IMG/VR virus record: IMGVR_UViG_2747842453_000002
Location: 1 to 64,000 of that record
Strand: one strand, 5' to 3'
Length of the DNA: 64,000 nt
From: a virus
Taxonomy: Duplodnaviria > Caudoviricetes
Part shown: positions 26,460 through 45,247 of the stretch, piece by piece
How positions within the stretch are numbered: the stretch's first letter is position 1
How the letters are laid out: each line of letters starts with the position of its first letter
Translations under genes and position numbers: made by a program
The notes under the pieces: generated by a model
What the model saw: only the letters and a program-made list of their open reading frames with translations
Told to the model about the DNA's origin: nothing
Databases searched by the model: none

Positions 26460-26494
26460 TAATTAATATAATATATTCTGTAGGAGAACTATAA

Positions 26495-29400
26495 ATGGCA
26501 TATGCTGTAAAATATAGACGCGGTACAACTGCTGAACATGCATCATTCACTGGTGCAGCAGGCGAAATAACTGTAAACACAACCACCAATCAATTAATAG
26601 TACACGATGGCGTCACGATTGGTGGCCATGCTATTAGTGCAGGAGTTAGTGGCGGTGGCGGGCCAAGTACATTGACTGATTTAAATATCAGTGATGGAAC
26701 TGATGGTCAAGTTCTTACTACTGATGGTACTGGAACATTCACGTTTACTACCGTAACAAATAGTGGAGGCAGCAGTCAAACTTCTACAATTATTTCCCCA
26801 TCTGCATTTGCATATGTCAATACAACATCAGATGGTTCAGGTACAAACATAAGTTGGTCAAATTGGAATAACTCCAATGGTACAATGGACTTTACATTTG
26901 AAACTGCACAGCCAGATGTAAATTATGCGGTCATAAGTGATGTAGAAAAATTCGATGATATCAATATTCAGGTTTCTTCTAAATCTACTACTGGATTTAC
27001 AATTACTATCTATGATGGTTTAGGAAACGTAGCAAGTCCTGATATAACAGGCACATTTTCTATTATAGTATATGCATCAACGCCTACATTAGAAGTGAAT
27101 GGATCAAGTAATAGTAGCAGTGTTGGCAGTGATGAAGTTTATATTCTCGCAGATATGCCAGCATTAATTGCAAAAACTGGAATGATTACAGGAGATAAAG
27201 CATATCTTACTTCAAACAACAATTTATATTTATATATAGGAACAGGTTGGTATCTAATTGCATCAGTACAGAATGATGCCCCATCTGCAATTACAAATGT
27301 TAATTCATCATACGTTCTTTCTATTGATGGCACACCTACTGTAATTACTGCAGCCTCAACCGATCCAGAAGGATTTCCTCTTACGTGGAGTTACGCAGTA
27401 ACGAGTGGTTCACTTGGCGCAACTACAATTTCACAAACTGATAATGTCTTTACTATTACTCCAAGTACTAATTCAGCAGACGAAGGTGAGTTTACATTAA
27501 CTATATCTGCAACTGACGGCACCAATGGTGCAGTAAACACAGCAACATCAATATCATTGCAATTCCAAGTTAGTGTCACTAATAGTAGATATACACAATT
27601 ACTAGTAACAGCAGTTGGTACATCAGATAATAGTAATGTAACAGATTCATCTACTAATAATTATAGCATGTCTAATATCGGCGAACCACAGGCTGGGACA
27701 TTTAGTCCATACAGACACGGTGGTTATAGTATGTACTTTAATGGAATATTTGATCAATTGAACATTGCAAGTCATGAGAGCTTGGGCTTTGGTACTGGGG
27801 ATTTCACAATAGAATTTTGGACTCAGTGGGGCGGCACCTTTTCGAGCGCATCTGGTGGTGCCATGGTAGACCTCAGGTCGGCAGTGGACGCCTCAGCAAC
27901 TGTTATCTACTTGAGCACAGCAAGTACAGGAGGCCAAATTACTTTCTATGATGGACCGGCGAATACAGAGATTTCTACTGGGATTGCTATAACTAAAGAA
28001 TGGACCCATATTGCCCTTGCTAGAGAGAGCGGAGTATGGAGAATATTTATTAATGGAACCCTTCGTGCCTCTAGAACTAGTAGTACCAACTTGGGCAGCA
28101 GCCAGCCTATTAGAATAGGCCAGGGAATAAATGGTTGGACCACTGCATATGACGGACATATTTCAGATCTTAGAATCGTAAAAGGTACTGCTATTTATAC
28201 TAGTAACTTCACTCCACCGGATGAACGCCTGGAGTCAGTACCAAACACTAGCCTTCTTACCTGTCACCGTCCTTATTATGCAGACGGTTCATCAAATAAC
28301 CATACTGTTATTCTCGGAGGACACATCCCAAAAATAGAACCATTTGCACCATATGACTATCCAGGGTACGGATCATCAACTAACGGTGGGTCTGTATATT
28401 TGGATGGTAGCAGCAGTGTCACAGTGCCTGATGCTCTTAATCTTGGCACAGATGATTTTACATATGAATTTTGGATTTGGACAGACGAAAATTGGAATCC
28501 TGGAGGTGCAGATGCAATAGCGGCACAGTCTACAAAACCAATTATTAGTGCTGAAACAAGTGGGACTGGTGTAGGCTGGACATTTGGGCCAAGTACATTA
28601 GATGGATTTAACGGTTTAACTTTTAGTTATGGTTTATATGGTAGTTTTATAGTTGGAAAATTTATTGATAACTATTGGATAGTCCCAAAAGAATGGACTC
28701 ATCTTGTCGCTCAAAGAAGAAACGGAATTGTTGAAATTTATGTAAATGGTGTAAGTCGAACATTAACTACCTACAATCAAAATGCAACTTGGAATGATGG
28801 AGCAGATATAACGAGTACTCAAACTTCTAGAACATTTTGTAATGGAGTTAATTGTTATATTTCGGATCTAAGATTAATTACTGGTTCTTATGTGTATGAT
28901 GGTGATTTTATTCCACCATCTGTCCCTTTACCCACAGTCACTGGAGCCGATTTGCACATCAAAGGCACAGATGCTTCTATCATAGATAAGGCACAAACCG
29001 GTAATCTACCTCTAATTGGCAATACTAGCGGTTCAACTACTCAAGTTAAGTTTGCAGATAGTAAGTCGATGTATTTTGATGGCAGTGGTTATGTTAGAGT
29101 AGAAGATTTAGGAAGTGGGCCATTAGCCACAAGCGAAGGATTTACAATCGAAGGTTGGATATATCCAATAACATTCTACAGCCCTTCGACCGCCTTCTTT
29201 GGTCTAAATAAAATTTCTAATGGAGATAATGTACTTGTGTTTGTAGGTGGCAACGGCGGAAGTTTATATTATGGATCGACCAGTTACTGGACGACCAGTA
29301 CGGATGTGCCTCAAAATGAATGGAGCCATATTGCAGTAGTTGTTGTAGGAACTTTAGTAAAAGTTTATTTAAATGGATCTGAAGTTATATCTAAAACATT

Positions 29401-29584
29401 GTCAAGTTTATCTACGATTAATTGGGATGATTGTATATTTGCAATTGGAGCAGAATATGACTCCGCAAACGGAGGCGGTATCGGTAATCGCTTGACAGGT
29501 TATATTCAGGACTTCCGTATTACCAAAGGTTTAGCAAGGTATACTGCAAACTTTACACCACCAACATCACCACTGGAAGGCTAA
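26495..29584 (+). CDS. Tail fibre/receptor-binding protein: Mtd_N-like N-terminus, Ig-like domain, three LamG domains
   Basis: RRGTTAEHASFTGAAGEITV..HDG; FTIEFW, WTHIAL and DLRIVKG..YTSNFTPP LamG motifs. Confidence 0.8.
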   Translation: MAYAVKYRRGTTAEHASFTGAAGEITVNTTTNQLIVHDGVTIGGHAISAGVSGGGGPSTLTDLNISDGTDGQVLTTDGTGTFTFTTVTNSGGSSQTSTIISPSAFAYVNTTSDGSGTNISWSNWNNSNGTMDFTFETAQPDVNYAVISDVEKFDDINIQVSSKSTTGFTITIYDGLGNVASPDITGTFSIIVYASTPTLEVNGSSNSSSVGSDEVYILADMPALIAKTGMITGDKAYLTSNNNLYLYIGTGWYLIASVQNDAPSAITNVNSSYVLSIDGTPTVITAASTDPEGFPLTWSYAVTSGSLGATTISQTDNVFTITPSTNSADEGEFTLTISATDGTNGAVNTATSISLQFQVSVTNSRYTQLLVTAVGTSDNSNVTDSSTNNYSMSNIGEPQAGTFSPYRHGGYSMYFNGIFDQLNIASHESLGFGTGDFTIEFWTQWGGTFSSASGGAMVDLRSAVDASATVIYLSTASTGGQITFYDGPANTEISTGIAITKEWTHIALARESGVWRIFINGTLRASRTSSTNLGSSQPIRIGQGINGWTTAYDGHISDLRIVKGTAIYTSNFTPPDERLESVPNTSLLTCHRPYYADGSSNNHTVILGGHIPKIEPFAPYDYPGYGSSTNGGSVYLDGSSSVTVPDALNLGTDDFTYEFWIWTDENWNPGGADAIAAQSTKPIISAETSGTGVGWTFGPSTLDGFNGLTFSYGLYGSFIVGKFIDNYWIVPKEWTHLVAQRRNGIVEIYVNGVSRTLTTYNQNATWNDGADITSTQTSRTFCNGVNCYISDLRLITGSYVYDGDFIPPSVPLPTVTGADLHIKGTDASIIDKAQTGNLPLIGNTSGSTTQVKFADSKSMYFDGSGYVRVEDLGSGPLATSEGFTIEGWIYPITFYSPSTAFFGLNKISNGDNVLVFVGGNGGSLYYGSTSYWTTSTDVPQNEWSHIAVVVVGTLVKVYLNGSEVISKTLSSLSTINWDDCIFAIGAEYDSANGGGIGNRLTGYIQDFRITKGLARYTANFTPPTSPLEG

Positions 29585-29606
29585 AATCTTAAAATATACG
29601 AAAACT

Positions 29607-29632
29607 AAAAAGCGTTCTTTGAACGCTTTTTT
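29607..29632 (+). terminator. Bidirectional intrinsic terminator
   Basis: AAAAAGCGTTC-TTT-GAACGCTTTTTT. Confidence 0.85.
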
Positions 29633-29728
29633 ATTGAAAAAGTAATTTAACTATACATATGCAAGAACGATATATTGATAAATACTATCAAAGTAATATC
29701 ATAACACGTAATTTAGGAGAATAATAAC

Positions 29729-32700
29729 ATGTCATATGCAGTACAATTTAGGCGTGGTACAACTGCTGAACATGCATCATTCACTGGTGCAGCAGGCGAA
29801 ATAACAGTAAACACAACTACTAATCAATTAATAGTGCACGATGGCGTCACTGTTGGCGGCCATGTTGTTGGTTCAGGCGGCGGTACAGGTGGTGCAAGTA
29901 CATTGACTGATTTAAATATCAGTGATGGAACTGATGGGCAAGTTCTTACTACTGATGGTGCTGGAACATTCACATTTACTACCCTATCAAATAGTGGAGG
30001 CAGTGGAGGCGGTGATATATCCTCAATTATTTCCCCATCTGCATTTGCATATGTCAATACCATATCTGATGGTTCAGGCACAAACATAAGTTGGTCAAAT
30101 TGGAATGGCGCTTCTGGTACAATGGACTTTACTTTTGCAACTGCGCAGACAGATGTAAATTATGCAGTCATAAGTGATGTAGAAGGATTCGATGATATCA
30201 ATATTCAGGTTTCTTCTAAATCTACTACTGGATTTACAGTTGCTATTTATAACGATTCGGGAAATGTGGGCAATCCTAGTACAACCGCAGCCTTCTCAAT
30301 TATGGTATATTCATCTGTTCCTTCTCCTTCTAGTAGCGCAAACACTTCTTCAACAGAAATATTGGCAGACATGCCAGCATTAATTGCAAAAACCGGAATG
30401 AGTGCAGGAGATCAGGTATATCTTACTTCAAATAATAATTTATATTTTTACACAGGAACAGGTTGGTATCTAATTGCAACAGTACAAAATAATGCCCCAT
30501 CTGCAATTACAAATGTTAATTCATCATACAATCTTAATGGAGATGGCACACCTACAGTAATTACTGCAGCCGCAACCGACCCAGAAGGATTCCCACTTAC
30601 ATGGAGTTATGCAATAACATCTGGATCACTTGGATCAACTGCTACAATATCACAAGCAGATAATGTTTTTACAATTACACCAGGTGCTGATTCAGCAGAC
30701 GAAGGTGAGTTTACATTGGCTATATCTGCAACTGATGGAACGAATGGCGCGGTAAGTACAACTACAGTATTATCTCTTTTCTTCAATATCACTAATAGTA
30801 GATATACACAATTACTAGTAACAGCAGTCGATACATCTAATAATGATATTATTGATCATTCATCTAATAATCATACTGTGAGTTTAGTAGGTGATCCAAT
30901 AGCTAATACATTTAGTCCATTCCGACACGGTGGCTACAGTATGTACTTTGATGGATCTGGTGGAGATTGGGTAAAATCAGACACGCATGCCGATTTTGGT
31001 TTTGGCACAGATGATTTTACAATAGAATGTTGGTATTATCCGGTATCAAAACTTCAGTCCTATCCTAGAATATGGAATTTTGGTCCATTTTGGCAAAACT
31101 CTCAGTCGTTGGCTTTCGTTGATAGGCATAATGATAACAACACTGTCCTTACCTTGAACAGCTGGACAGCAGGAGAAATTTTAAGGTCTACTACAACAAT
31201 AGAAAATAATAAATGGTACCATCTTACAGTCGAAAGAAGTGGCACTACTATAACTTTATATGTAAATGGTGTATCTGAAGATACATACGATGCTGGAACT
31301 TCTGAATTTATTACAAGTTCTCCCAGTTATGTTACTATTGGTAATGTTAGTGATGGGAGTAATTTATACGAGTCAGCACTTCAAGGAAATATTAGAGATT
31401 TTAGATATGTCAAAGGTACCGCAGTATATGGTGCAAACTTTACCCCACCAACCGAACCTTTAACAGAAGTTACTAATACAAAATTATTAACTGCTCAAGG
31501 GCTGCAATTTAGTGATGTCTCTGCTAACAATCACTCAATGTCAAAGACAGGCGATGTTTCCACAATGCCATTTACACCATATGACTATGCAGAATATGAT
31601 TCAACAAAACACGGCGGATCAATTTACTTTCCTGACAGTGGAGGATTATATATACCATCTGATAGTGTTGGGACAGTGAGCGATGATGATTTCACAGCAG
31701 AATGTTGGTTTTATCAGGAAGAGCCGGGCGGTAACTGTACATTGTTTGATAAAGATGGCAGAGCTAATATATCATTTGCACAAGTATCACTGAGCACAAC
31801 GACAAGTAAAGAAATTTACGCATACCTCGGTACCGGTAATGGGATTGGTGCGCGTCAAATTATACAAACAGGTTCTAATGTGTTTGATTTATCTACATGG
31901 AATCATGTTGCACTTGTTAAAGATGCTAATACGATTAAAATATACGTAAACGGTAACTTACAAGCAGAAGAAACAATTACTACGACAATCACAAATGGCG
32001 GACAACCCTTATACATAGGAATGAGAGCAACAGGCGATGTTCGTTTTCATGGCTATATTGCAGATTTTCGTTTTGTAAAAGGCCAAGCGTTGTATAATTC
32101 CAACTTCGTTCCAAATTCATTACCTGCAACGTCTACTGGAATGGATATTCATCTAAAAGGTACTGAATCTTCTATAATAGATAAAACTCAAAATAAAACT
32201 ATTCTCACTCTAGAAGGCAATACTACTGGTTCAACTACTCAAGTTAAGTTTGCAAATAGTAAGTCAATTTATGTTGATGGCAGTGGTGATAATGTAACTA
32301 TCACAGATTTAGAAATGGGATCAGCAGATTTGACATTTGAATTATGGATGTATCAAGATGTTGCACAGAGTGCTTCTTATAGAGGTATATTAAGTGCAAG
32401 TTCCTATACAGATAATAATCCATTTACTTTATATACACACAATTCAACATTACAGCTTTGGTTGAATCAAATGGATCCAAGTCCCAGTGCCAGTGGTCCA
32501 TTTACTGCATTTACTTGGCATCATGTGGCAATAGTAAGAAATTCTGGCACATGGACTTTATATATTGATGGGATATCTGTTGGTACATCTACAACCGGTG
32601 GAACTTATAACTTTACAAATACAATAGATTTTTTACTTGGTCAAAGGACTGGTGGATCATATGACTGGAAAGGTTATCTTCAAGATGTTAGATTCACAAA

Positions 32701-32758
32701 AGGTGTAGCAAGATATACCGCTAACTTTACACCACCTACTAGTTCACTCAAAGGTTAA
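29729..32758 (+). CDS. Tail fibre/receptor-binding protein, paralog of 26495..29584
   Basis: Same architecture, with near-identical N-terminal DNA blocks. Confidence 0.8.
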   Translation: MSYAVQFRRGTTAEHASFTGAAGEITVNTTTNQLIVHDGVTVGGHVVGSGGGTGGASTLTDLNISDGTDGQVLTTDGAGTFTFTTLSNSGGSGGGDISSIISPSAFAYVNTISDGSGTNISWSNWNGASGTMDFTFATAQTDVNYAVISDVEGFDDINIQVSSKSTTGFTVAIYNDSGNVGNPSTTAAFSIMVYSSVPSPSSSANTSSTEILADMPALIAKTGMSAGDQVYLTSNNNLYFYTGTGWYLIATVQNNAPSAITNVNSSYNLNGDGTPTVITAAATDPEGFPLTWSYAITSGSLGSTATISQADNVFTITPGADSADEGEFTLAISATDGTNGAVSTTTVLSLFFNITNSRYTQLLVTAVDTSNNDIIDHSSNNHTVSLVGDPIANTFSPFRHGGYSMYFDGSGGDWVKSDTHADFGFGTDDFTIECWYYPVSKLQSYPRIWNFGPFWQNSQSLAFVDRHNDNNTVLTLNSWTAGEILRSTTTIENNKWYHLTVERSGTTITLYVNGVSEDTYDAGTSEFITSSPSYVTIGNVSDGSNLYESALQGNIRDFRYVKGTAVYGANFTPPTEPLTEVTNTKLLTAQGLQFSDVSANNHSMSKTGDVSTMPFTPYDYAEYDSTKHGGSIYFPDSGGLYIPSDSVGTVSDDDFTAECWFYQEEPGGNCTLFDKDGRANISFAQVSLSTTTSKEIYAYLGTGNGIGARQIIQTGSNVFDLSTWNHVALVKDANTIKIYVNGNLQAEETITTTITNGGQPLYIGMRATGDVRFHGYIADFRFVKGQALYNSNFVPNSLPATSTGMDIHLKGTESSIIDKTQNKTILTLEGNTTGSTTQVKFANSKSIYVDGSGDNVTITDLEMGSADLTFELWMYQDVAQSASYRGILSASSYTDNNPFTLYTHNSTLQLWLNQMDPSPSASGPFTAFTWHHVAIVRNSGTWTLYIDGISVGTSTTGGTYNFTNTIDFLLGQRTGGSYDWKGYLQDVRFTKGVARYTANFTPPTSSLKG

Positions 32759-32779
32759 ATTTTTATATATATTAAAACT

Positions 32780-32807
32780 AAAAAAGCGTTCAAAGAACGC
32801 TTTTTTT
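32780..32807 (+). terminator. Bidirectional intrinsic terminator
   Basis: AAAAAAGCGTTC-AAA-GAACGCTTTTTTT. Confidence 0.85.
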
Positions 32808-32902
32808 ATTGTTGCAGTAATTAATATATATACATATATAAGATTAAACATGATTTGATAAATACTTGTAACATTATAAAGTATACTTTAGGAGAATTAT
32901 AA

Positions 32903-33490
32903 ATGGCATATGCTGTACAATTTAGACGTGGTACTACCGCAAACCACGCATCCTTCACGGGTGAGGCTGGTGAAGTAACTGTAAACACAACTACAAATGA
33001 ACTAGTAGTACATGATGGTACTACTGTTGGTGGGCATACAGTTGGCGGCGTATCGACTGATCCTTCATTTCAATCACTAACTGTTGTTGGTGACTTAGAC
33101 GTATCAGGTGCTACTAAACTAGCAGAAATACATGAAAATGTAACTACTAATATTAGTACAACTGGGACACTATTATTTGATGCTACTACACAAGGTGTTT
33201 TATTTGCTACTGTAGAACAAACTGCTGACAGAGAAATTAATTTTACAAATGTAAATTCAAGTCTTGCAGTTGGCGAAAGTTTCACTGCAGTAATACTATT
33301 GACACAGGGGACAACAGCGTACTATGTGAATGCATATAAAATTGATGATACAGTATGTACGCCAAAATGGTCTGGCGGTTCAGCACCAACAGAAGGAAAT
33401 GCAGATAGCATTGATACATACTCTTTTACAATTATCAAAACTGCTGATGCAACTTTCACTGTAATGGCAAGTCTCACACAATTTGCATAA
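32903..33490 (+). CDS. Short fibre/adaptor protein with Mtd_N-like N-terminus
   Basis: QFRRGTTANHASFTG..HDG; C-terminal KWSGGSAPTEGNADSIDTYSFTIIKT. Confidence 0.7.
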   Translation: MAYAVQFRRGTTANHASFTGEAGEVTVNTTTNELVVHDGTTVGGHTVGGVSTDPSFQSLTVVGDLDVSGATKLAEIHENVTTNISTTGTLLFDATTQGVLFATVEQTADREINFTNVNSSLAVGESFTAVILLTQGTTAYYVNAYKIDDTVCTPKWSGGSAPTEGNADSIDTYSFTIIKTADATFTVMASLTQFA

Positions 33491-33518
33491 AATTTAATAA
33501 TTCAATCGGAGATTTGAA

Positions 33519-34769
33519 ATGCCAAATAACTACAAAGGGCTGAATATATCAGGATTAAAATCAACAACTAAATTATCAAGAGTTCAAGTTGAACCAACTA
33601 TTGATTTTGTTGAGATTACAGATCGTGGATTACTTGATGAACCAATTGCAAAACTAAGAACAGCCGGTGCCGGTCATCAAAAAAGATCAAATGCAAGTCC
33701 AAAGTCTGCAATTGGTACATCTATTGATATGGGTGAATTATGGGAACCGGCATCAATCTATGATTATGGAGAAGTTGAAGAGGGTGCTTTCGCAGTAACA
33801 GAAGACGCTGTTTGGAGTGCTAGACGCAAATTAATGAACCCACCTCCTCCGCCGACAACACCATGGGTAAATAGAGATGATTGGAATGGTGGAACTACCA
33901 GTTACTATAGTGTTCCAACTGGTGATGGTACTTATGGTGCTCATGCTGGTATTCCTAGGGGTAATCAGAGATCAGTAACTTTTAACTCTGACGGTTCAAT
34001 TGGCTATATTATCGGACAAAGTTATATGAATGCATATAATTTATCAGTACCGTATGATCTTGATGCGTCTACAAGAACCAATAGTTATAGTTCATTTACT
34101 GTTACAAATGGATCAGGTAATGTTTCAGCATTAGAGGTGGTTGATAATGGTAACAGAGTTTTAAGAGGTTGGTATGATAGTGTGGCACTTTTTAATTTAC
34201 ATGAAAAAGACGTATTTACCTCGCCGTCTGCGTCTTCAACAGGTTTTCATATGGGTACGCTTACAACTAATCCAAGTTATTATAATTTTAATAATAGTGT
34301 GATGAGTTGGAACATTTCAGGAGATGGAACAAAACTAACTGCATTTATTCTTTGTTCATACTTATCTTACGATTCTGGTACTGATACATGGACCAGATAT
34401 CAAAGTGGTAGCACATACAATACTGGTGTAATTGTTTTCGATTTAACATCTGCATGGGATTTATCTACCGCCACATACTTTTCTTATGGCAATGTTAGTA
34501 ACAATTGGAATCAAACCAGACCTAAGGGGTTCATGGCTCCAGATGGCTTAACTATATGGCTACAGGGTCAAGGCCAAATAAAAATCTATTCATTAGCAAC
34601 TGCATTTGATATGTCATCAACTAGAACATTATTGAGCCAAGCAAATCACTCTAAGCAATTCACTGACACTACATTGACAGTGAGCCCAGATGGTAGATAT
34701 GCATATAGTACTCCAGACCAACCATCGAATGGTAACAGACTAGATATGACAGATTTCGGCGCACCATAA
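33519..34769 (+). CDS. Virion receptor-binding-type protein with beta-propeller-like head
   Basis: N-terminus shared with 34787; YNLSVPYDL, DLTSAWDLSTA and YSLATAFDMSS repeats. Confidence 0.6.
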   Translation: MPNNYKGLNISGLKSTTKLSRVQVEPTIDFVEITDRGLLDEPIAKLRTAGAGHQKRSNASPKSAIGTSIDMGELWEPASIYDYGEVEEGAFAVTEDAVWSARRKLMNPPPPPTTPWVNRDDWNGGTTSYYSVPTGDGTYGAHAGIPRGNQRSVTFNSDGSIGYIIGQSYMNAYNLSVPYDLDASTRTNSYSSFTVTNGSGNVSALEVVDNGNRVLRGWYDSVALFNLHEKDVFTSPSASSTGFHMGTLTTNPSYYNFNNSVMSWNISGDGTKLTAFILCSYLSYDSGTDTWTRYQSGSTYNTGVIVFDLTSAWDLSTATYFSYGNVSNNWNQTRPKGFMAPDGLTIWLQGQGQIKIYSLATAFDMSSTRTLLSQANHSKQFTDTTLTVSPDGRYAYSTPDQPSNGNRLDMTDFGAP

Positions 34770-34786
34770 TCAATTAGGAGAATACG

Positions 34787-35884
34787 ATGCCAAATAACTA
34801 CAAAGGGTTGAATATATCAGGATTAAAATCAACAACTAAATTATCAAGAGTTCAAGTTGAACCAACTATTGATTTTGTTGAGATTACAGATCGTGGATCA
34901 ATCAGTGAAAATCCTAGTAAATTGAGAACAGCCGGTGCCGGTCATCAAAAAAGATCAAATGCAAGTCCCAAGTCGGCAATTGGTACATCTATTGATATGG
35001 GTGGATTATGGGAACCGGCATCAGAATATGACTATGGTAACGTATCTGCCGATGCTTTTGCAGTCGAAGAAGACTCTGTTTGGATTAAACGAAGAAATTT
35101 ATATTCTGTTACAGCACCAACAGCACCATCTATAGAGTATGATACAACATTACTTATTAAAGGAGTTTTCAATCCACTCAGCGCGAGCCCATATGACAAC
35201 TTTAGCGTATCCACAGCAGATGGAACATTAGATGGCACTGAACGCGGACCGGGCTTGGGGCCAGTGGCTGGCACTTCTTTTGACGCAAATGAGTCACCAT
35301 ATGCTAGTGGCGCTGGGGCAACTTATCATTTGTCAAACCATTATTACAAAATTGGCAGTGATTACTATCCTCGGACCGGTGGTTTCACTGGTGCATTTAC
35401 ATTTGAGATGTGGATAAAATGTGAAGCATTACCACCAACAACTGGTGGGAACATTTTGGGATATGACGGCAACCAAGGCGGCAACAAAATATACATTGGT
35501 AATTCTGGAAATGGTAATAAGCTGTATTTCCATAATTGGCACAACGAACCGAGAGCCTGCGATCTCACAAGACACGACATCGGAGACGGAAATTGGCACC
35601 ATATTGCATGGACAAGAGATGATAATTTGGATAGTAGAGTATTTTATGATGGAGTACAGAAAAACACAAGCCCTACCAACGCGAACACTAACTACTATAA
35701 TCCTATAACTTTTCCTGATGCATCATGGAATGACACAAGACCGTGGCACACCCAATCACATCCGCCATACATACATTGTGCACAAACCAGTGGCTGGACT
35801 ACAGATGTTAGATGGATAAACGGTGGAGCATTGTATACTTCGTCGTTCACACCACCAACCGCACCTCTGACTGCTATTCCATAA
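34787..35884 (+). CDS. Virion receptor-binding-type protein with LamG head
   Basis: First 37 aa identical to 33519; FTFEMWIK, WHHIAWTR and YTSSFTPP. Confidence 0.65.
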   Translation: MPNNYKGLNISGLKSTTKLSRVQVEPTIDFVEITDRGSISENPSKLRTAGAGHQKRSNASPKSAIGTSIDMGGLWEPASEYDYGNVSADAFAVEEDSVWIKRRNLYSVTAPTAPSIEYDTTLLIKGVFNPLSASPYDNFSVSTADGTLDGTERGPGLGPVAGTSFDANESPYASGAGATYHLSNHYYKIGSDYYPRTGGFTGAFTFEMWIKCEALPPTTGGNILGYDGNQGGNKIYIGNSGNGNKLYFHNWHNEPRACDLTRHDIGDGNWHHIAWTRDDNLDSRVFYDGVQKNTSPTNANTNYYNPITFPDASWNDTRPWHTQSHPPYIHCAQTSGWTTDVRWINGGALYTSSFTPPTAPLTAIP

Positions 35885-35913
35885 AGAATTAGGAAAATTA
35901 CTATTATTAAGTT

Positions 35914-36009: not shown

Positions 36010-36999
36010 ATGAGACTATTTGATTTAATAGAAAATGAAAATACAAGGGTAGTTATTATCTATCCGGGAAGGTTTCATCCTTTTCATATTGGACATGGAA
36101 AAGTATTTAAGTATCTAAAACAGAAATTTAAAGGTGCACAAGTTTTTATTGCTAGTTCAGGCAAAACAGATGCGCATAAATCTCCATTTTCATTTGATGA
36201 AAAGAAACGTATGATGATGTTAGCAGGTGTTGATCCAAATTCAATAGTACAAGCAAAAATTCCATATGTTGCAAGTGAAATCACAGATAGATATGATCCT
36301 GATAACACAGTTGTTATATATGCGGTATCGGAAAAAGATATGGCCGAAGATCCAAGATTTGATTTTCCTACATCTGGACTAAAGACTAAAAAGAATGGTG
36401 ATCCAGCACATATTCAATTATGGCGAGGAATTGACAATGCAAAGTCACTAAGACAACATTCTTATATTGTAACAGTTCCTACATTTACCTTTAAAATTAG
36501 AGGCAAAGCAGTGAATAGTGCTACACAGATTCGAAATATGATTTCAACTGCGGACGACACAGCGTTAAATCAAATATTACAAGACTTGTACGGGCGCAGT
36601 GATATTCCAGAAAATGTAATAGAAATGTTTAAAAGAAAACTTGGAAGTTCAACTGTTAGTGAAAATTGGGAAGAAGAAGATTTATATTCAATATTACTTG
36701 AAGCAGAATTGCAGCATCAGATGATCACAGAAGACAAATCTGATGTGGAATCCTTTGATGTTAAAACTGCAAGAGCATTGAATAATTTAAAAGTTAAATA
36801 TCCAGGTGCTGATAATTTATTAGGTGCATTAGTTGCTGATGTAGAAGATTCACAAACAGTAAGCAAGAAAAATGATATACAACATAGTATTGACATTGCA
36901 ACAGTTGAAGACAAAATAGATAACAGTATTGCCAAATTAGAGAAACAAATAAATTCACTAACACAGGAATTGAAAAATCTAAAGACTAGTAGAAAATAA
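36010..36999 (+). CDS. HxGH cytidylyltransferase-like nucleotidyltransferase with coiled-coil tail
   Basis: IYPGRFHPFHIGH, SPFSFDEKK and NSATQIR; late promoter at 35965. Confidence 0.75.
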   Translation: MRLFDLIENENTRVVIIYPGRFHPFHIGHGKVFKYLKQKFKGAQVFIASSGKTDAHKSPFSFDEKKRMMMLAGVDPNSIVQAKIPYVASEITDRYDPDNTVVIYAVSEKDMAEDPRFDFPTSGLKTKKNGDPAHIQLWRGIDNAKSLRQHSYIVTVPTFTFKIRGKAVNSATQIRNMISTADDTALNQILQDLYGRSDIPENVIEMFKRKLGSSTVSENWEEEDLYSILLEAELQHQMITEDKSDVESFDVKTARALNNLKVKYPGADNLLGALVADVEDSQTVSKKNDIQHSIDIATVEDKIDNSIAKLEKQINSLTQELKNLKTSRK

Positions 37000-37018: not shown

Positions 37019-38737
37019 ATGAAAATTAATGAATTAGATAAAAATATAGGTGTAACACAACAACAACTAGATTCACTTGAAAATGTTCTAGATCGTGTAT
37101 TTGCAAGTGTAGGCATTGATGTTGAGTTTACAAAACACTTTATAGATCGTGTTAATGATGAACGTAATATTCGTCCTATAACTATCAAAGAACTTGCAAT
37201 GTTATTTAAAAAAGAATTTGTTAAATATGGTAAACCAATTGCACAACTAGGCCCAGATGCTCAAGCAGTAATGAAGGACTTAGAAACTGATATTAATATA
37301 CCATTTGTTCTTAATTGGAATGGCGAAGAATTAGAACTAGTTGCAAAAACTGTAATGCGCAAAAAAGATTTTAAATCATCAAATAAAGAATTTGCAGTTG
37401 AAAGTGATGATATTATGGTAAAAGGAAAAAAATCAGATTTTCCAGACAATTATGATGCTACTAACGACACAACATTTAATGATTTTTCTAAAAAAGAATT
37501 TAAACAGGTCGCTATGAAGGCTATCTCATCTCTTAATAAGCAAGAACAAATGGTAATAAAGGCAAGATTTGGATTAGAACCATTCAATACATCATACACG
37601 CTACAACAAATAGCAGATGCTATGAATTTGAGCAGGACACGTATTCGCCAGATTCAAGACAGAGCATTACGTATACTAAAACATCCGAGCCGCTCAAGAG
37701 GCATGAGAAGTTATCTGAACCAGAGTAAAGAATTCACAGTTGAAAGTGATAACCAATCTGGTGTGTATTCCGATGAAAAGAATAACGTTGAAATTCATTG
37801 GAAACGAATAGATCATCCCAGCGTAGCAAAAGATCATCTAGACATAGAAGCATATCAAAATGGCAAGCGCGTGGATATTAATAATCAACAAGCAGATCAT
37901 TATAGATATTTAATTAATCAGGAAATGAATGAAACTGAAACATTGGGATCTAAAATAAACTTTCCTGGAATGTCTGGCACAACAGTAAATACATCGACCA
38001 CTACTAAAACAAGAGTGCCAACTCCTAAACCAGCTAGAAATAGATTTGACAAAATTGTAAATTGGAGTAAAAGTTTATTCAATTCAGAAGGAATAAATGA
38101 AGATATCGGTTCATTACCTCCATTAGTAGACTTGATTGTTCTTGCTGTACTAGCACAGACTACAGTTGCTGGTATTAAAACAATGTTTAAAGTTGCAGTT
38201 AAAACTGGCAAAGGTCTTAACAAACTTCGTAAACTTACAAAACAAGCAGGTATAGCATTAGATGCCAAGTTATCAGAAAGTGAAATGGTAGAAGATTTTT
38301 TAGCAGATAAGTCTGAACAAGAAAAGAAATTTTGGAATGCAGCATTGGAAGCACTACATAGATTACAAGGATCTAAAGAGTCAAAACAGTCAATTGAAAG
38401 TTATGCGTTTGACATTGCAAGATCATTCAATGGAATGAGTTCAAAAGAATTATTGGCATTGTATAAATTAAAATATGGAATTGATGAGACTTTAGAAGAA
38501 GCAAAACAAAGTAATCCATTAGTAGTATTGGACAAACTTGCAGATAGATCAGACAACAATGCATTTCCTGTCAAGTTTTATGATGATACTGTAATAAAAG
38601 TAACACCCAAAAAAGCAAAGAAATTTATGGATGTATACTATCAAATGGCAGATGAACAACGTGATGTTATCAACAAATATATAAAAACGAAAAAAGGATT
38701 TATGCAGGCTATTAACGATTTTAATATTCCTATATAG
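37019..38737 (+). CDS. Modular putative internal head polyprotein including a sigma70 region-4 domain
   Basis: MKINE start; FTKHFIDRVND module; RFGL..YTLQQIA..NLSRTRIRQIQDRALRILKHPSRS (RpoD-r4-like); E-ending linkers. Confidence 0.7.
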   Translation: MKINELDKNIGVTQQQLDSLENVLDRVFASVGIDVEFTKHFIDRVNDERNIRPITIKELAMLFKKEFVKYGKPIAQLGPDAQAVMKDLETDINIPFVLNWNGEELELVAKTVMRKKDFKSSNKEFAVESDDIMVKGKKSDFPDNYDATNDTTFNDFSKKEFKQVAMKAISSLNKQEQMVIKARFGLEPFNTSYTLQQIADAMNLSRTRIRQIQDRALRILKHPSRSRGMRSYLNQSKEFTVESDNQSGVYSDEKNNVEIHWKRIDHPSVAKDHLDIEAYQNGKRVDINNQQADHYRYLINQEMNETETLGSKINFPGMSGTTVNTSTTTKTRVPTPKPARNRFDKIVNWSKSLFNSEGINEDIGSLPPLVDLIVLAVLAQTTVAGIKTMFKVAVKTGKGLNKLRKLTKQAGIALDAKLSESEMVEDFLADKSEQEKKFWNAALEALHRLQGSKESKQSIESYAFDIARSFNGMSSKELLALYKLKYGIDETLEEAKQSNPLVVLDKLADRSDNNAFPVKFYDDTVIKVTPKKAKKFMDVYYQMADEQRDVINKYIKTKKGFMQAINDFNIPI

Positions 38738-38747
38738 TAACTATACC

Positions 38748-40469
38748 ATGAACATAAATGAAATACAATCACCAAAGATAAAAATTACAGACAATACACT
38801 AACGGAATCTGTAAATAAAGTAGTGGCGATTAATGAAGGTTACAAGTTACAACTAGAGCGTGACACTGATATGATGGTGTTACATATTACTGATACGGCA
38901 ACTGGCAAGCGTACAGAAGTTCGTGGTAAGAGTGGCTACGAAACAGGCGGATATGATTCAACAGATAGCTTGCATATTCTACTAGACAAGATAGGCAAAA
39001 GTGCTAATATCAGTGACCTAATGAATGGCGATACTGTTGGCATTAATCCTAAACATCCTAAAGGTGCAAGTGCAAACGCTGCAGCAACTACAGCGTTTAA
39101 TGAATCCTTAAACAACCCATATCCATTTAATCTTACTGGACCAAGTGAGTCACAAGAATTTTCAGCAATTGCAAAAACACCAAATGGTGTGTTAAGAATG
39201 GACTTTGAAACAACTGACTATGATAACTTTGGTATTGACTTTTCAGTTGGCAAGAGCATGGGCAAAACAGATGCAGGTGACGAGTTTAGAGTATTCTCAA
39301 CTGTAGTTGCAATGATGACAAAGTGGATCAAAACAGTTGGTATTGAACACGTAGAAAGTTTTGATTTTGGTGCTAACAAAGGTGAACATGCTAGTGACGG
39401 CAGAGCAAAACTGTATACTAGATTTGCTAAACAACTTGCTAGTAAACTAGGTTGGAAGTTAGAGCAAAGTACCACAAGAGATAATAACACAGCATTCTTT
39501 AGACTAGTTAATCCTAAACCAATACCACGTGAACAAGAGTATTGGGATGCACTAGATGAAGGAGTTGAAGTATCGTTACACGGTGATGCTAAAAAAGGTT
39601 ATGTGTTATCTAAGATTGAAGTATCAGGCGATGAGCGTAATGCTGGTCAAGGTACAAAAGCAATGCAAGACATTGTTGACAGAATGGATAGAGAAGGTGC
39701 TATTATCGCACTAACACCAGACGATGCGTTTGGTGGAAACAAGAATAGATTAATCAAATTCTATAAGCGTTTTGGTTTCGTACCAAACAAAGGTCGTAAC
39801 AAAGATTTTCGTTTTAGAGAAACAATGATCCGTTATCCACAAGGCAACGAAAGTGTTAATGAAGTATCAAAAGAAGAGTTTGATGCTATTCAGAATGGAT
39901 ACGTTGATATTGAGTTTGATAAGAAATGGTGGCCTCTAAACGATGATTATCCACTGGTCAAACATATAGGTAATGCTATTGGTGCAACTAGTTGGACTAG
40001 TTGGGGCAAAGTTGGAGTTCCATGGTCTGAAACAGAAATGATTGGTGGGGGTGGCACATATATGCTTAAAGGAGACTTTGGACATATACTGTTGGATACT
40101 GCAAAGAGTTATCGCCCAGATAAAATCGTAATGTCACAAATATCAACGTCCAAACGAGGCGGTGGCATTGGTGCTAAAGTTATGAATGCAATAAAATCAT
40201 ATTCAGATCAAAACAAATTACCATTAACAATATATAAAGTAACTAATCAGAAGTTTTTTGACAAGTTTGAATGGCTAAAAAAGACAGGTGTTGATACATA
40301 CGAATATAGTGTCAATGAAGTTAAAGAATCTGCTGGTGTTGGTCGTGTCGTAAAAGGTGTTAACACTACTGTTGACGTAGGTGTAGATGAAATCATCAAT
40401 CAAGTCAAAAAGTTTGGCAATGATGTTGATAGAGATGGCAAACCAAAAAAGAATTTAAGAAACAAATGA
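38748..40469 (+). CDS. Modular putative internal head polyprotein with two GNAT domains
   Basis: MNINE start; ERNAGQGTKAM..RLIKFYKRFGF and KRGGGIGAKVM GNAT motifs; ESVNE linkers. Confidence 0.7.
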   Translation: MNINEIQSPKIKITDNTLTESVNKVVAINEGYKLQLERDTDMMVLHITDTATGKRTEVRGKSGYETGGYDSTDSLHILLDKIGKSANISDLMNGDTVGINPKHPKGASANAAATTAFNESLNNPYPFNLTGPSESQEFSAIAKTPNGVLRMDFETTDYDNFGIDFSVGKSMGKTDAGDEFRVFSTVVAMMTKWIKTVGIEHVESFDFGANKGEHASDGRAKLYTRFAKQLASKLGWKLEQSTTRDNNTAFFRLVNPKPIPREQEYWDALDEGVEVSLHGDAKKGYVLSKIEVSGDERNAGQGTKAMQDIVDRMDREGAIIALTPDDAFGGNKNRLIKFYKRFGFVPNKGRNKDFRFRETMIRYPQGNESVNEVSKEEFDAIQNGYVDIEFDKKWWPLNDDYPLVKHIGNAIGATSWTSWGKVGVPWSETEMIGGGGTYMLKGDFGHILLDTAKSYRPDKIVMSQISTSKRGGGIGAKVMNAIKSYSDQNKLPLTIYKVTNQKFFDKFEWLKKTGVDTYEYSVNEVKESAGVGRVVKGVNTTVDVGVDEIINQVKKFGNDVDRDGKPKKNLRNK

Positions 40470-40608: not shown

Positions 40609-40636
40609 TTACCATTTATAATTTAGGAGAGTTATA

Positions 40637-43600
40637 ATGCCAATTCTAGGATCATTCGCAAGTGGTGCAATCGGCACGGTCGGACTTGCACAACAAGCAA
40701 TGCTTGCATTTTTAAAAGCATCAACCGCAATATCAGGATCATCATTCGTCCTACAACAACTTATAGGAGGGCCAGATGGCTCGTACATTGCTGGGCGGAA
40801 TAATAGTATTAACGGACAAAGTAGTTTTGCTGCTGATGGTGATTATTTAGTTACTGGGTCGGGTTGGACTAATGAAGTTTTGGTTTGGAACTTATCAGAC
40901 GGTTCGTTACATATGACTATACCAGCCCCATCGCCACCTCCACAGACTAACGGCTATGGTTGGCAAATTGATATACATGGAGATTATTTTATTACAGGTA
41001 ACGGCGGCACCGGCGGTGGCTATACAACCATACATAATGTATCAACCGGGGCTCTAATTACATCATTTACCGGCGCAGCTAGAAATGTTGCAATTGATGA
41101 AAATTATGCAGCGGCGTGTGCCAATGGTGGACCGATTAAAATATTTGAATTGGCAACCAGCACTCTTACAACCTTCCCGGATCCAAATGGCGGATTAGCT
41201 GACTTGATGGATATATCTGGTAATAATTTGATACTTGCGCCAAATAATGGCTCCCTAATAACAGTGCATGATATACCTACTGCTTTATCTAATGGCAATT
41301 TAAATACTACTAGCCTGACAATAAATACAACAGTTAGTTACTTTCAAACATTGATCGCTGGAGGTAATTATTTGGCGTTAGGCAGAACAGGTGCCGGAGA
41401 CCAAAGCATTTTGATTTATGATCTAACTACGGGAACACTACTTCATACTTTGCCCGCACCAGTAGGCGCGAGTGCAGCGTTTGGTAATGCGATAGATATA
41501 AAAGGCAATTATTTAGTTGCGGGACATCGAGGACAGGAACAGTATTCCCCTGCTGCAGTATATGATTTAACAACTGGCATATTATTACAAACGTTCACAG
41601 GCGATGATATTCCCGACACATCTACATGGCAGAATACAGACGTTGATAAGCTATTAGGCACCGCAGTAGCAATCACTGACAGTAAAACCATTATCGGTTC
41701 TAGCAGTGGCGGTGAAAGTGCAAACAATTGGCTTGGTGCGTTTCTTATATACTCTAATCCTGGCCAAGCAGCAATATCTGAAGAAGTATCCTTGGACTGG
41801 AGTAATATTACATTAGAACATACACTAGATAATCCAAATCCATTTGGTACTAGTGAGAATGATCAATTTGGCATGGATATTGCAATGTCTAGTACACATG
41901 CAATTATTGGTACATACGCAGAAGACGATGCTGGCGGTACTAATTCAGGTAAAGCCTATATCTTTGATCTAACAACAGGATTATTACTTCATACATTAGA
42001 TAATCCAAATCCAGTTGGCACAAGTACTGATGATTGGTTTGCATATTCAGTCGCAATATCTGATACATATGCAATAGTTGGTGCTTTTAGAGAAGAGCAT
42101 AATTCAGTAACTGGTGGGAATGCAGGGAAAGCATATATCTATAAGCTATCTGATGGATCATTAATAAAGACATTGATCAACCGGGATACGAATGGCAATC
42201 CGATTGGTGATCTGTTTGGCCACGGAGTTGCAATATCTGATACACATGCGATTGTTAGTGCGTGGGGCGAAGATTGGGGCTCTACGGGCACGGTGTCTGG
42301 TGTTGGGAGCGTTTATATCTATGACATATCACCCGAGGGGATAGTGACAGGGCCTCGTGCGTCAATGATTATAAGCAATCCCTCGGACTATCCGAATGGT
42401 TATTTTGGCTGGGGAGTTGAGATGAATGATAATTATGTAATTGTTACTTCACCCAATGATGAAGTAGGCAAAGCATATATCTTTAATGTATCCGATGGAT
42501 CATTAGTATATACATTAGATAATCCAGGTGGATTTGACGCGGCGTCGAGAAATGATAATTTTGGTGCAACACGAAATTTCTGGCATTCGACAAGTCAGGC
42601 GGCGATATCTGATAATTATGCAATTGTTAGTGCACCATATGAAAATGACGCTGATGGACTTTTTGCCTCGGGCATAGTATATGTTTTTGACATGTCAGAT
42701 GGATCATTAGCACATACACTTTATAATCCAAATCCATTTGGTACTACTCAAGAAGATTATTTTGGCATGTCAGTTGATCTTGATGGTGACTTTGTAATTG
42801 TTGGCGCACCATATGAAGATGATGCAGGTACTAACTACGCAGGCAAGGCCTATATCTTTGATCTAACAGATGGATCATTAGTAAATACAATAGATGATCC
42901 AAATGCCTTTGGTACTACTGATAATGATAGATTTGGCCACGCAGTTGCAATGTCCGATGGGCGTGCTCTTATAAGTGCTAGTAGAGAAGATGATGGCAGT
43001 GGCACTTCTGCAAATTCTTCAGGCAAGGCTTATATCTTTAGTGCACAAACTACAGTAGCAAGTGCACCTGCAGCGGGACCTGCAGACTGGAGTAATGCTA
43101 CATTAGCATATACATTAGATAATCCAAATCCGTATGGTACGAGTCAGAATGATTACTTTGCTAATGTCGCAATATCTAGCACATATGCAATTATAGGTGC
43201 GCAAAATGAAATGCTAAATGAATCGGAGACTTATGGTGGTATAGCCTATATTGTTGACCCATCAGATGGATCATTAGTATATACACTACATAATCCCAAT
43301 CAGGGTACTGGTTCAGAAATTGGGGATATGTTTGGCATTTCGACCGCAATATCTGATACACATGCAATTGTAGGTGCGTATAGCGAAGATGATTCAAATG
43401 GTCTTAATTCAGGTATAGCCTACATTTTTGACTTATCAGATGGATCATTGGCACATACAATAAATAATCCAAATGCGTATGGTACTGCTACGTCGAATGG
43501 CTACTCCAATGATGGATTTGGATATGCAGTGGCAATATCTGATACACACGCAATCGTTGGTGTACCATCTGAAGATGATGCCAATGGCGCTGGGAGTGCA

Positions 43601-45178
43601 TTCAGTGGGAATGATTCGGGTAAAGCCTACATTTTTAACGTATCTGATGGTTCATTATTACATACCTTAGATAATCCAGATGCTTATGGTGACGGTGTAT
43701 ACGATTGGTTTGGCGGGTCAGTAGCAATATCTGATACACACGTAATCGTTGGCGCGCGTGGCGAAGATGATACTGGTGGCGATGGATCAGGTAAAGCATA
43801 TATCTTCAATGTGACTTCAGGTTCTCTAGTTTATACCTTAGATAATCCTAATGCATATAGTACAAGTGCAGGAGATCAATTTGGCCAATCAGTAGCAATA
43901 TCTGATACACATGCAATTGTAGGTGCGTATAACGAAGATGATGCTGGTGGTACAACTTCAGGTAAAGCATATATCTTTGACCTATCAGATGGATCATTAG
44001 CATATACACTACATAATCCAAATCAACATGGTACTAGTCAAAACGATCATTTTGGGTGGACAGTTTCAATATCTGATACACATGCAATTGTAAGTGCAAT
44101 GTTAGAAGAGGATGCTGATGGTAATAGTTCAGGTAAAGTCTACATATACGACTTATCAGATGGATCATTAACAAATACATTAGATAATCCAAATGCTTAT
44201 GGTACTAGTGAGGGTGATAGATTCGGTAGCACAGTGGCAATATCTGGCTCAAATATAATTGTAGGCGCAGTATTTGAAGATGACGCTGGTGGTACAAGTT
44301 CAGGCAAATCCTATATCTTTAGTGCAAGTGCACCTGCAGAAGAATCTACTGGATGGACTATTGATCTTTCTAATGTGACATATGACTCTGAATTTAGTTT
44401 AAACAATCAAATGACAAGTTATGCGACTGGTCAAACCTTAAGCACTGACGGTACAAAGTTATATGTAGTTGGTCAGAATCAATTCGCACCCACGACATGG
44501 ATTACACAGGTGTGGCAATATTCCTTATCCACTGCCTTCGATATCAGTACCGCTTCATATGATAATGTTACCTTTAATCCATCTAGTCAGGATACTAATC
44601 CTATGGGCATAGATTTCAATACTGACGGTACGAAGATGTATTTAGTCGGTACTAATAGTGATTTGGTGCTTCAATATTCTCTCAGTACTCCATGGGATGT
44701 AAGTACCGCTTCATATGACAATGTATCGATTAGTGCACCGGGTACGTTTGGCCTATATTTCAAAGATGATGGCACGAAAATGTATACGACTGGGTTTGAT
44801 GCGAACTTAACAGGCGTGAGATCATTTTCTTTATCAACAGGTTTCGATCTAAGTACTGCCACTGATGATCTCTCAACTTACAGTTCAATTGCCGTCACTG
44901 GAGGAAATCCTTTTGTCGCGGCTTTGAACCCAGATGGCACAAAAATGTATATCCTTGGTAACAGATCAATATACCGTTATTCCTTATCGACAGCTTTTGA
45001 CGTAAGTACAGCCACCTACGATAACGAAAGTATTTCTTTAAGTAATGAGTTCCATTTGATGTATAACATGGAGATATCACGTGATGGCACTAAGATATAT
45101 GCAGTTGGAACCTCGCCTGGGACGGGCCCCACCACTGGTTCTAGTAGAAGCGTAGTGCAATTCGACACAGGTTTATGA
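40637..45178 (+). CDS. Large FG-GAP repeat virion protein with C-terminal propeller repeats
   Basis: Many LDNPN.YGT..D.FG.SVAISDTHAIVGA..EDD..SGKAYIF units; DGTKMY..YSLSTAFDVSTA repeats. Confidence 0.8.
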   Translation: MPILGSFASGAIGTVGLAQQAMLAFLKASTAISGSSFVLQQLIGGPDGSYIAGRNNSINGQSSFAADGDYLVTGSGWTNEVLVWNLSDGSLHMTIPAPSPPPQTNGYGWQIDIHGDYFITGNGGTGGGYTTIHNVSTGALITSFTGAARNVAIDENYAAACANGGPIKIFELATSTLTTFPDPNGGLADLMDISGNNLILAPNNGSLITVHDIPTALSNGNLNTTSLTINTTVSYFQTLIAGGNYLALGRTGAGDQSILIYDLTTGTLLHTLPAPVGASAAFGNAIDIKGNYLVAGHRGQEQYSPAAVYDLTTGILLQTFTGDDIPDTSTWQNTDVDKLLGTAVAITDSKTIIGSSSGGESANNWLGAFLIYSNPGQAAISEEVSLDWSNITLEHTLDNPNPFGTSENDQFGMDIAMSSTHAIIGTYAEDDAGGTNSGKAYIFDLTTGLLLHTLDNPNPVGTSTDDWFAYSVAISDTYAIVGAFREEHNSVTGGNAGKAYIYKLSDGSLIKTLINRDTNGNPIGDLFGHGVAISDTHAIVSAWGEDWGSTGTVSGVGSVYIYDISPEGIVTGPRASMIISNPSDYPNGYFGWGVEMNDNYVIVTSPNDEVGKAYIFNVSDGSLVYTLDNPGGFDAASRNDNFGATRNFWHSTSQAAISDNYAIVSAPYENDADGLFASGIVYVFDMSDGSLAHTLYNPNPFGTTQEDYFGMSVDLDGDFVIVGAPYEDDAGTNYAGKAYIFDLTDGSLVNTIDDPNAFGTTDNDRFGHAVAMSDGRALISASREDDGSGTSANSSGKAYIFSAQTTVASAPAAGPADWSNATLAYTLDNPNPYGTSQNDYFANVAISSTYAIIGAQNEMLNESETYGGIAYIVDPSDGSLVYTLHNPNQGTGSEIGDMFGISTAISDTHAIVGAYSEDDSNGLNSGIAYIFDLSDGSLAHTINNPNAYGTATSNGYSNDGFGYAVAISDTHAIVGVPSEDDANGAGSAFSGNDSGKAYIFNVSDGSLLHTLDNPDAYGDGVYDWFGGSVAISDTHVIVGARGEDDTGGDGSGKAYIFNVTSGSLVYTLDNPNAYSTSAGDQFGQSVAISDTHAIVGAYNEDDAGGTTSGKAYIFDLSDGSLAYTLHNPNQHGTSQNDHFGWTVSISDTHAIVSAMLEEDADGNSSGKVYIYDLSDGSLTNTLDNPNAYGTSEGDRFGSTVAISGSNIIVGAVFEDDAGGTSSGKSYIFSASAPAEESTGWTIDLSNVTYDSEFSLNNQMTSYATGQTLSTDGTKLYVVGQNQFAPTTWITQVWQYSLSTAFDISTASYDNVTFNPSSQDTNPMGIDFNTDGTKMYLVGTNSDLVLQYSLSTPWDVSTASYDNVSISAPGTFGLYFKDDGTKMYTTGFDANLTGVRSFSLSTGFDLSTATDDLSTYSSIAVTGGNPFVAALNPDGTKMYILGNRSIYRYSLSTAFDVSTATYDNESISLSNEFHLMYNMEISRDGTKIYAVGTSPGTGPTTGSSRSVVQFDTGL

Positions 45179-45193
45179 TAATGTAGCAAGTTA

Positions 45194-45221
45194 AATGGAT
45201 GCGATTTTATTCGCATCCATT
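45194..45221 (+). terminator. Hairpin after the FG-GAP gene (weak U-tract)
   Basis: AATGGATGCGA...TCGCATCCATT. Confidence 0.5.
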
Positions 45222-45247
45222 ATCTGTTTAATTTGATAAATACTATT

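Follow-up and report, generated by a model that had tools for sequence, protein, structure and literature searches.

Several small phage products occupy or imitate the position of sigma factor region 4 (sigma-4) to redirect the host RNA polymerase, among them T4 gp33 and AsiA, which act at the sigma-4/beta-flap interface. The LtrA late activators, small free phage proteins with a Sigma70_r4-like region (PMC3753634), and the minimal sigma factor with a single helix-turn-helix (HTH) of group-2 jumbo phages (PMC7824862) are of the same kind. Each of them is encoded by a gene of its own and has a set role in the transcription programme of the phage. Here we describe a sigma-4 module which is, in contrast, an optional cassette in a mosaic, effector-like protein of 572 residues (P0001). 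The protein is encoded in the viral record IMGVR_UViG_2747842453_000002, the first 64 kb of which (from now on the window) were analysed; the whole record measures 120.8 kb. The module is homologous to RpoD/SigA from the end of region 3.2 through regions 4.1 and 4.2 to the native C-terminus. It differs from RpoD/SigA in that regions 1 to 3 are missing, that it is embedded in an unrelated modular protein and that it is optional, and most of its relatives carry an extra conserved N-terminal extension.

Unrelated domains in one polypeptide, extreme mosaicism and solo or fused BECR-type RNase-like domains, GNAT and ParB-like parts are known from the polyvalent proteins (Iyer et al. 2017, PMC5512222), a paper in which sigma has 0 occurrences. 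The family of P0001 likewise shows two or more disparate domains per polypeptide and mosaic architectures among homologues. It differs from the polyvalent proteins by the small modules on linkers ending in Glu (E-ending linkers), and neither a PBECR Pfam match nor a processing metallopeptidase was seen here.

The T4 internal proteins and Alt, the latter of which acts on the host RNA polymerase, are another point of comparison, as they too are diverse, fast-evolving accessory proteins with a common short conserved sequence. In T4 this is an N-terminal leader of 10 residues, whereas here a domain of about 120 amino acids (aa) with its tail and internal E-ending linkers are found. In T4 the capsid-targeting sequence (CTS) brings proteins of a diverse and rapidly evolving set into the head (PMC9026906, PMC3012670). 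Prohead proteases of T4-type and giant phages cleave after Glu (PMC9026906): T4 gp21 cuts after L/I-X-E, the giant-phage enzymes after Glu with few other determinants (PMC9026906, PMC3012670). The KEFxVE motif of P0001 departs from the L/I-X-E of the gp21 substrates.

In the literature searched, a sigma region-4 module as optional cassette in proteins of the polyvalent or internal type appears to be undescribed. An initial annotation of this DNA had named no described sigma-4 mimic that is delivered by the virion. Our literature searches found none either, but free sigma-4-like phage proteins are already on record (PMC3753634, PMC7824862).

A sigma region-4 module between two copies of a tail motif

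The segment is a facultative, in-frame sigma-4 module, which is bounded by a duplicated tail and lies in a recombining mosaic gene of the beads-on-a-string type. P0001 comprises, in this order, an N-terminal domain (N-domain), the sigma-4 cassette, module C, the Ser/Thr/Pro-rich module D, a hydrophobic segment and a conserved C-terminal domain. The features of the gene are:

37019 to 38737, plus strand: open reading frame (ORF) of P0001, a modular mosaic protein of 572 aa
37019 to 37402, plus strand: N-domain, aa 1-128, ending in the conserved tail N-K-E-F-x-V-E
37384 to 37408, plus strand: left 25-nt repeat (KEFAVESD), the version kept by the empty alleles
37403 to 37744, plus strand: facultative cassette, 342 nt or 114 codons, aa 129-242, SDDIMVKG...KEFTVE, placed with Glu before both borders
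37520 to 37684, plus strand: Sigma70_r4 match, aa 168-222
37726 to 37750, plus strand: right 25-nt repeat (KEFTVESD), appended at the end of the sigma-4 module
37745 to 37933, plus strand: module C, about aa 243-305, SDNQSGVY...QEMNE; facultative, missing in P0008, P0009 and P0016
38117 to 38188, plus strand: conserved hydrophobic segment (PPLVDLIVLAVLAQTTVAG...) followed by a Lys-rich stretch
38306 to 38734, plus strand: conserved C-terminal region, mostly helical in the model; family and fold not recognised

The two 25-mers reported by the initial annotation lie exactly where it had put them, agree at 23/25 positions and are translated to KEFAVESD and KEFTVESD in the frame of the 572-aa ORF; they are spaced by 342 nt (114 codons), which keeps the frame. 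In 300 codon-shuffled versions of the ORF a match of 23/25 was never reached (the top 25-mer match was 22, observed once), and the match of 7/8 residues between the two octapeptides was equalled in 1/200 residue shuffles. Owing to the repeat the borders of the cassette are ambiguous, and they can equally be placed anywhere up to 37409-37750.

An assembly chimera or artefact was ruled out for the sigma-4-bearing arrangement, because both repeats are crossed without any difference by independent contigs of 2318 nt and 976 nt, which come from two other studies. The stretch was found in 20 runs from 11 marine, estuarine and reef studies. An autonomous mobile element was also rejected: the 342 nt encode nothing beyond the in-frame sigma-4 module, inverted repeats were not found at the ends of the segment, and neither a transposase nor an endonuclease of its own is encoded within it.

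As the initial annotation had supposed, a hidden Markov model search assigns the enclosed segment to the Pfam family Sigma70_r4 (PF04545; E 6e-14, 51.7 bits vs a cut-off of 24.1, aa 168-222). The match spans the full model (positions 1-50), reaches 55.5 bits in a six-frame search and is the only one of its kind in the whole 120.8-kb record. Homology to RpoD begins near aa 138, at the end of region 3.2, and extends to aa 234, which corresponds to the native C-terminus of RpoD. The NCBIfam RpoD model PRK05658 is matched at positions 543-630 of 631 (6e-20) and the RpoD chain 7ye1_F of the PDB is aligned at residues 578-651 of 652, while the alignment with region 4 of E. coli (1tlh_B) covers the recognition helix and the HPSRS..LRS(F/Y)L tail. 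Both the HPSRS..LRSFL C-terminal tail and an alignment that reaches the end of RpoD are signatures of primary (group-1) sigma factors. Region 4 is, however, the only sigma region in the 572-aa protein, regions 2 and 3 being missing; judged by its sequence, the segment is a sigma-4 domain and not a sigma factor.

The likeness to the RpoD C-terminus, which had been called close, holds as far as the family and the alignment to the last residues of RpoD are concerned, but its closeness was somewhat overstated, with an identity to cellular-type sigma factors of only 42-49% over the core. We also looked for a recent capture from a host RpoD. This candidate was rejected, as a word-based search of longer proteins returned family members only, and in an exhaustive search no protein from outside the phage module family exceeded 42-49% identity.

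Empty alleles and the mosaic gene family

Relatives which lack the segment and contain a single KEFxVESD, as expected by the initial annotation, were found in four syntenic viral contigs and in at least seven protein clusters. P0005 has 458 aa (= 572-114), is 94% identical to P0001, and reads ...NKEFAVESDNQSGVY... with one copy of the motif; a single KEFxVESD is also present in P0007, P0010, P0011, P0012, P0013 and P0014. The length difference of 114 aa is seen in three pairs (P0001/P0005, P0004/P0011 and P0006/P0013). On the DNA level, BLASTN alignments with the IMG/VR contigs L004-L007 are all (4/4) interrupted at 37408|37726, where an overlap of 25 nt fits either repeat, and the same neighbour genes stand on both sides of the break. 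The alignment of the window with L004 contains one clean 342-nt gap between flanks of about 97% identity, and the left version of the repeat is retained.

Insertion as a cassette between direct repeats had been proposed for the segment. It is indeed bounded by repeats and empty alleles do exist, but the left repeat belongs natively to the N-domain as its tail, and the right one is the same tail repeated after the sigma-4 module. Therefore the event duplicated the tail, and insertion at a special, dedicated site is not required. As the same gene occurs with and without the module on several backbones, abundant marine jumbo phages offer a natural series of presence and absence for a domain derived from host sigma, which makes the function of the module directly testable.

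Across the contigs of four runs no skip of 342 nt was observed within samples; as contigs lose rare variants, this is uninformative either way. In run X1 assembly is interrupted at both repeats, and two variants of the cassette are found side by side. Two contigs of that run match the cassette from 37425 or 37475 on (one contig each) and have unrelated upstream sequence, which hints that the cassette may sit in other genes of the same marine community.

The mosaic pattern is not restricted to the cassette. P0016 shares its N-domain with P0001 at 100% identity, yet its C-terminal part is 97-99% identical to P0004/P0011 and only 67% to P0001; both the sigma-4 cassette and module C are missing. 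These module-by-module identities show recombination in the gene family. Pairwise comparison of 120 homologues revealed 191 distinct clean indel events of at least 25 aa. In 76/191 events the borders can be placed such that Glu closes both the sequence in front of the insert and the insert itself, and about 21 are expected for one border alone. This count is support and not proof, because the events are not independent and the linkers are acidic. The modules of the family mostly terminate in Glu, and typical junctions are ..VE|SD.., ..VE|TT.., ..MNE|TE.., ..GYGPVEE|.. and ..SVNE|DFGS.. An independent case of the repeat signature is provided by P0054, which relative to P0052 and P0074 contains a different cassette of 116 aa between KEFPVE and KDFPVE.

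The N-domain has homologues in more than 1,181 proteins of 71-228 aa (57-91% identity). Nearly all of these small proteins contain the tail MRKK.F(K/R)(T/S).N.EF.VE, and many of them end at or right after this motif, while others run on into unrelated sequence. Most of the long homologues (n=120) have the same motif near residue 123, followed by very different architectures. A stand-alone small N-domain protein is encoded in Methylophilales phage Melnitz and in Paraglaciecola phage GD1, whereas the N-domain forms the C-terminus of a 602-aa protein in Sinorhizobium phage phiM12. The short conserved tail, which is predicted to be disordered, is a module-swap junction in a very large phage family (>1,100 small and >1,100 long members).

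The AlphaFold model of the N-domain (predicted local distance difference test score 72) has a beta-alpha-alpha-beta-beta-beta core, and the predicted disorder of the tail extends over residues 118-130. Weak but consistent fold matches were obtained to RelE (Z 6.9, root-mean-square deviation 4.9, 86 residues aligned), T4 RegB (Z 6.3, 112 aligned), ParE and HigB, and the Foldseek E values were 0.02-0.1; the PBECR/BECR Pfam models do not match P0001. A RelE/RegB-like (BECR) fold is at present a lead only, and the family may represent an uncharacterised family of phage RNases. His40, Arg44 and Thr111 are invariant. An invariant motif of the family is GIDVEFT(R/K)HF.DRVND.RN.

The cassette itself is not restricted to relatives of P0001. 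An exhaustive, profile-free search with the cassette gave 13,471 matches, which are mostly sigma factors with 42-49% identity over the core. About 20 other clusters (formed at 50% identity) match the whole cassette including the part without a counterpart in RpoD, and these are modular phage-type proteins with the conserved N-terminal extension YNPDS.TYR..RIPNS.S.SK.DIT.K.K..D.PD. In P0257, P0259, P0266 and P0334 the cassette is fused to an HxGH nucleotidyltransferase like that of gene 36010, in P0248 to GNAT, in P0254 to a ParB-like part and elsewhere to the hydrophobic segment or to other modules. The long-form cassettes end in a native ..(L/M/V)D(E/D) with the next module directly after, whereas in the subgroup of the window the cassette end is now ..LNQS, followed by KEFTVE. 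Tandem sigma-4-like repeats (5-9 copies, e.g. nine in a protein of 938 aa) are present in P0246, P0255, P0262 and P0302 and are apparently unrelated to the phage cassette family.

The hydrophobic segment at 38117-38188, which may interact with membranes, is present together with the Lys-rich stretch in nearly all long family members. It is always preceded by an acidic junction (E/D)-(D/E)-(F/L/I)-G-S-x-P-P-L. For the C-terminal region (38306 to 38734) nothing usable was obtained from Pfam, the Atlas or Foldseek against the PDB.

Possible roles of the module

The repeats would serve as handles for homologous recombination. Recombination between them would delete the sigma-4 module, and exchange between co-infecting relatives via the conserved flanks would move it among backbones. 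We have good confidence that repeats and conserved flanks allow both deletion of the module and its exchange between alleles in this way, because the mosaic pattern across the whole gene fits.

With moderate confidence, the module can be regarded as an accessory part aimed at the host RNA polymerase, where it would dock to the beta-flap tip, to -35-like DNA, or to both, since the fold-defining residues and most residues of the recognition helix are kept across diverged carriers. The recognition helix R.RQIE.(K/R)ALR and ARFG are shared with region 4 of RpoD. Once docked, the module could be a competitor of the host's own sigma region 4, or it could recruit the attached modules to the polymerase. 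It may act within the intact protein, or a Glu-specific protease may release it by cutting at the E-ending borders. A module that is dispensable and variable among strains fits an arms-race or host-takeover function.

Taken as a whole, the explanation by a facultative module, recombination via the repeats and an accessory part directed at the host RNA polymerase is the one we consider probable, but some points weigh against it. In most long-form cassettes Pro, Gly or Val takes the place of R584 of the E. coli -35 recognition motif, and in the P0001 cassette E585 is replaced by Thr; therefore the classical reading of the -35 element may be altered. The hydrophobic, possibly membrane-interacting segment suits a soluble ligand of RNA polymerase poorly unless the module is released. 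Finally, owing to recombination in the gene, the founding event cannot be assigned a direction (gain or loss).

A possible, if doubtful, alternative is that the protein is made after infection and stays uncleaved, and that the sigma-4 module is an address tag in cis, by which the N-domain, with its RNase-like fold, and the remaining modules would reach RNA polymerase or promoter DNA. A loose functional analogy would then exist to T4 Alt and RegB, enzymes that modify or process the transcription machinery or what it produces. The occurrence of the same cassette in single polypeptides with an HxGH nucleotidyltransferase, GNAT and a ParB-like part would be sensible if it directs enzymes to a common substrate, and the weak RelE/RegB-like fold of the N-domain with its three invariant residues is in line with this. 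However, the module is gained or lost freely while the rest of the protein is unchanged, which argues that the other modules are independent of it, and the E-ending borders and the duplicated tail would be left without a role.

We think it unlikely that P0001 is instead a polyprotein packaged into the head, which the prohead protease cleaves behind the Glu of KEFxVE and other E-ending linkers, and from which a free sigma-4 protein of about 13 kDa is injected with the DNA to hit the host RNA polymerase or to act as a decoy at the start of infection. Such processing would account for the Glu at both border ends in the indel events mentioned above, although the acidic composition of the linkers by itself would raise this count. 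It would also fit a tail motif that is strongly conserved in spite of its predicted disorder, cassettes after the tail that carry their own copy of it in two separate cases, and long-form cassettes that end in a native ..(L/M)DE right before the next module. The genes starting at 36010, 37019, 38748 and 45466 begin with similar N-termini, and both cleavage after Glu by T4 gp21 and the giant-phage proteases and the loading of diverse proteins into heads by the CTS are precedents (PMC9026906, PMC3012670).

On the other hand, the motif F-(A/T/P/S)-V-E has Glu at P1 but A/T/P/S at P3 instead of the L/I of L/I-X-E, although other module borders (I-N-E, V-N-E, V-T-E) do fit the pattern of T4-type cleavage. 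No head, protease or capsid gene was found on the 120-kb record or on four related fragments in searches for Peptidase_S77 and Gp23, but all of these sequences are only 7-30% complete and the control genomes gave no match either. The stand-alone N-domain genes of Melnitz and GD1 are located among small genes beside primase and ligase. The N-domain resembles the RNases RegB and RelE, and T4 RegB is an early, non-virion enzyme. The T4 late promoter TATAAATA was rejected as a candidate, as it is no commoner in the window than expected by chance and has no site near the gene.

That cleavage and packaging of the module apply jointly is likewise unlikely. If the E-ending linkers are protease sites, the idea of T4 internal proteins and polyvalent proteins would extend to polyprotein arsenals, with RNA polymerase mimicry in addition. 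Clearly on the speculative side, and improbable as it stands, is the wider picture in which these marine jumbo phages maintain a shuffling pool of small effector modules on E-ending linkers behind a conserved leader domain, and the resulting strings are loaded into the head, cut by the Glu-specific prohead protease and injected. One of these modules would then be a free sigma-4 mimic that, within seconds of the start of infection, takes the beta-flap of host RNA polymerase or titrates a regulator or defence sensor that binds sigma-4. If true, the T4 internal-protein system would have a counterpart in polyprotein form, and a sigma-4 mimic delivered by a virion would be known for the first time.

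A neutral recombination scar, i.e. a functionless fragment of a sigma factor left by illegitimate recombination, is very improbable. The module is dispensable in close relatives and the gene is a recombination hot spot, as such a scar would suggest. But about 20 diverged clusters (41-68% identity) keep the cassette, with its sigma-4 motifs intact and with the conserved extension that RpoD lacks, it is always in frame, and its conservation within the close group (80-94%) equals that of the flanking domains.

That the module is a decoy, aimed at a defence system or regulator of the host by which sigma region 4 is recognised (e.g. an MzaA-type sigma factor system or an anti-sigma factor), has hardly any probability left. 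The match to the MzaA model (NCBIfam 1e-19; PADLOC 8e-9) is as good as that to RpoD, but it is limited to the shared sigma-70 C-terminal domain with no specific signature. An identity as MzaA was rejected for that reason, and a literature search on it yielded nothing relevant.

Genome context and neighbouring genes

The phage is a myovirus of roughly 400 kb of the Atu_ph07/Rak2 kind, present in marine metagenomes. Its DNA polymerase is nearest to those of jumbo myoviruses, i.e. Sinorhizobium phage Phosso (469 kb, 49%), Agrobacterium phage Atu_ph07 (490 kb), Xanthomonas XbC2 and Cronobacter GAP32. Such phages were put in group 2 by Iyer et al., with a gp23-type capsid and phage sigma factors including the minimal single-HTH form (PMC7824862). 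CheckV rates the record as 30% complete and the related fragments as 7-27%. Members of the P0001 family are encoded on contigs of up to 338 kb (P0063 and P0099 on contigs of 331-338 kb). A scan for sigma-70 promoters gave no more matches than shuffles.

The gene of P0001 is flanked by two genes for other proteins:

36010 to 36999, plus strand: upstream neighbour, HxGH cytidylyltransferase-like protein
38748 to 40469, plus strand: downstream neighbour, GNAT-containing modular protein

The N-terminal module of the downstream product is shared with the C-terminal ends of P0035 and P0070, and therefore the adjacent genes 37019 and 38748 are fused in other phages. The N-termini of the products of 36010, 37019, 38748 and 45466 read MRLFDLIE, MKINELDK, MNINEIQS and MKLSQLIE, respectively. 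Carriers of the sigma-4 cassette elsewhere begin alike (MKINEV, MKLTDF, MLLRELFE). The stand-alone N-domain proteins of the Melnitz type begin with MKTF.QFEQS, which presumably recalls the T4 capsid-targeting leader.

Two blocks around these genes are variable. The tail-fibre-like block at 26495-35884 is absent from contigs L005 and L006, which join 26463 to 35906, and the same contigs lack the FG-GAP repeat gene of 1513 aa at 40637-45178 and join 40610 to 45234. In L004 an FG-GAP-like sequence is located upstream of the 36010 homologue instead. Outside the window, the N-terminus of an ORF at G000:C1:118587-119186 resembles ClpP protease by eye only. The minus strand of the record contains a long gene run at 68-101 kb, in which several products have Cys-rich, radical-SAM-like N-termini.

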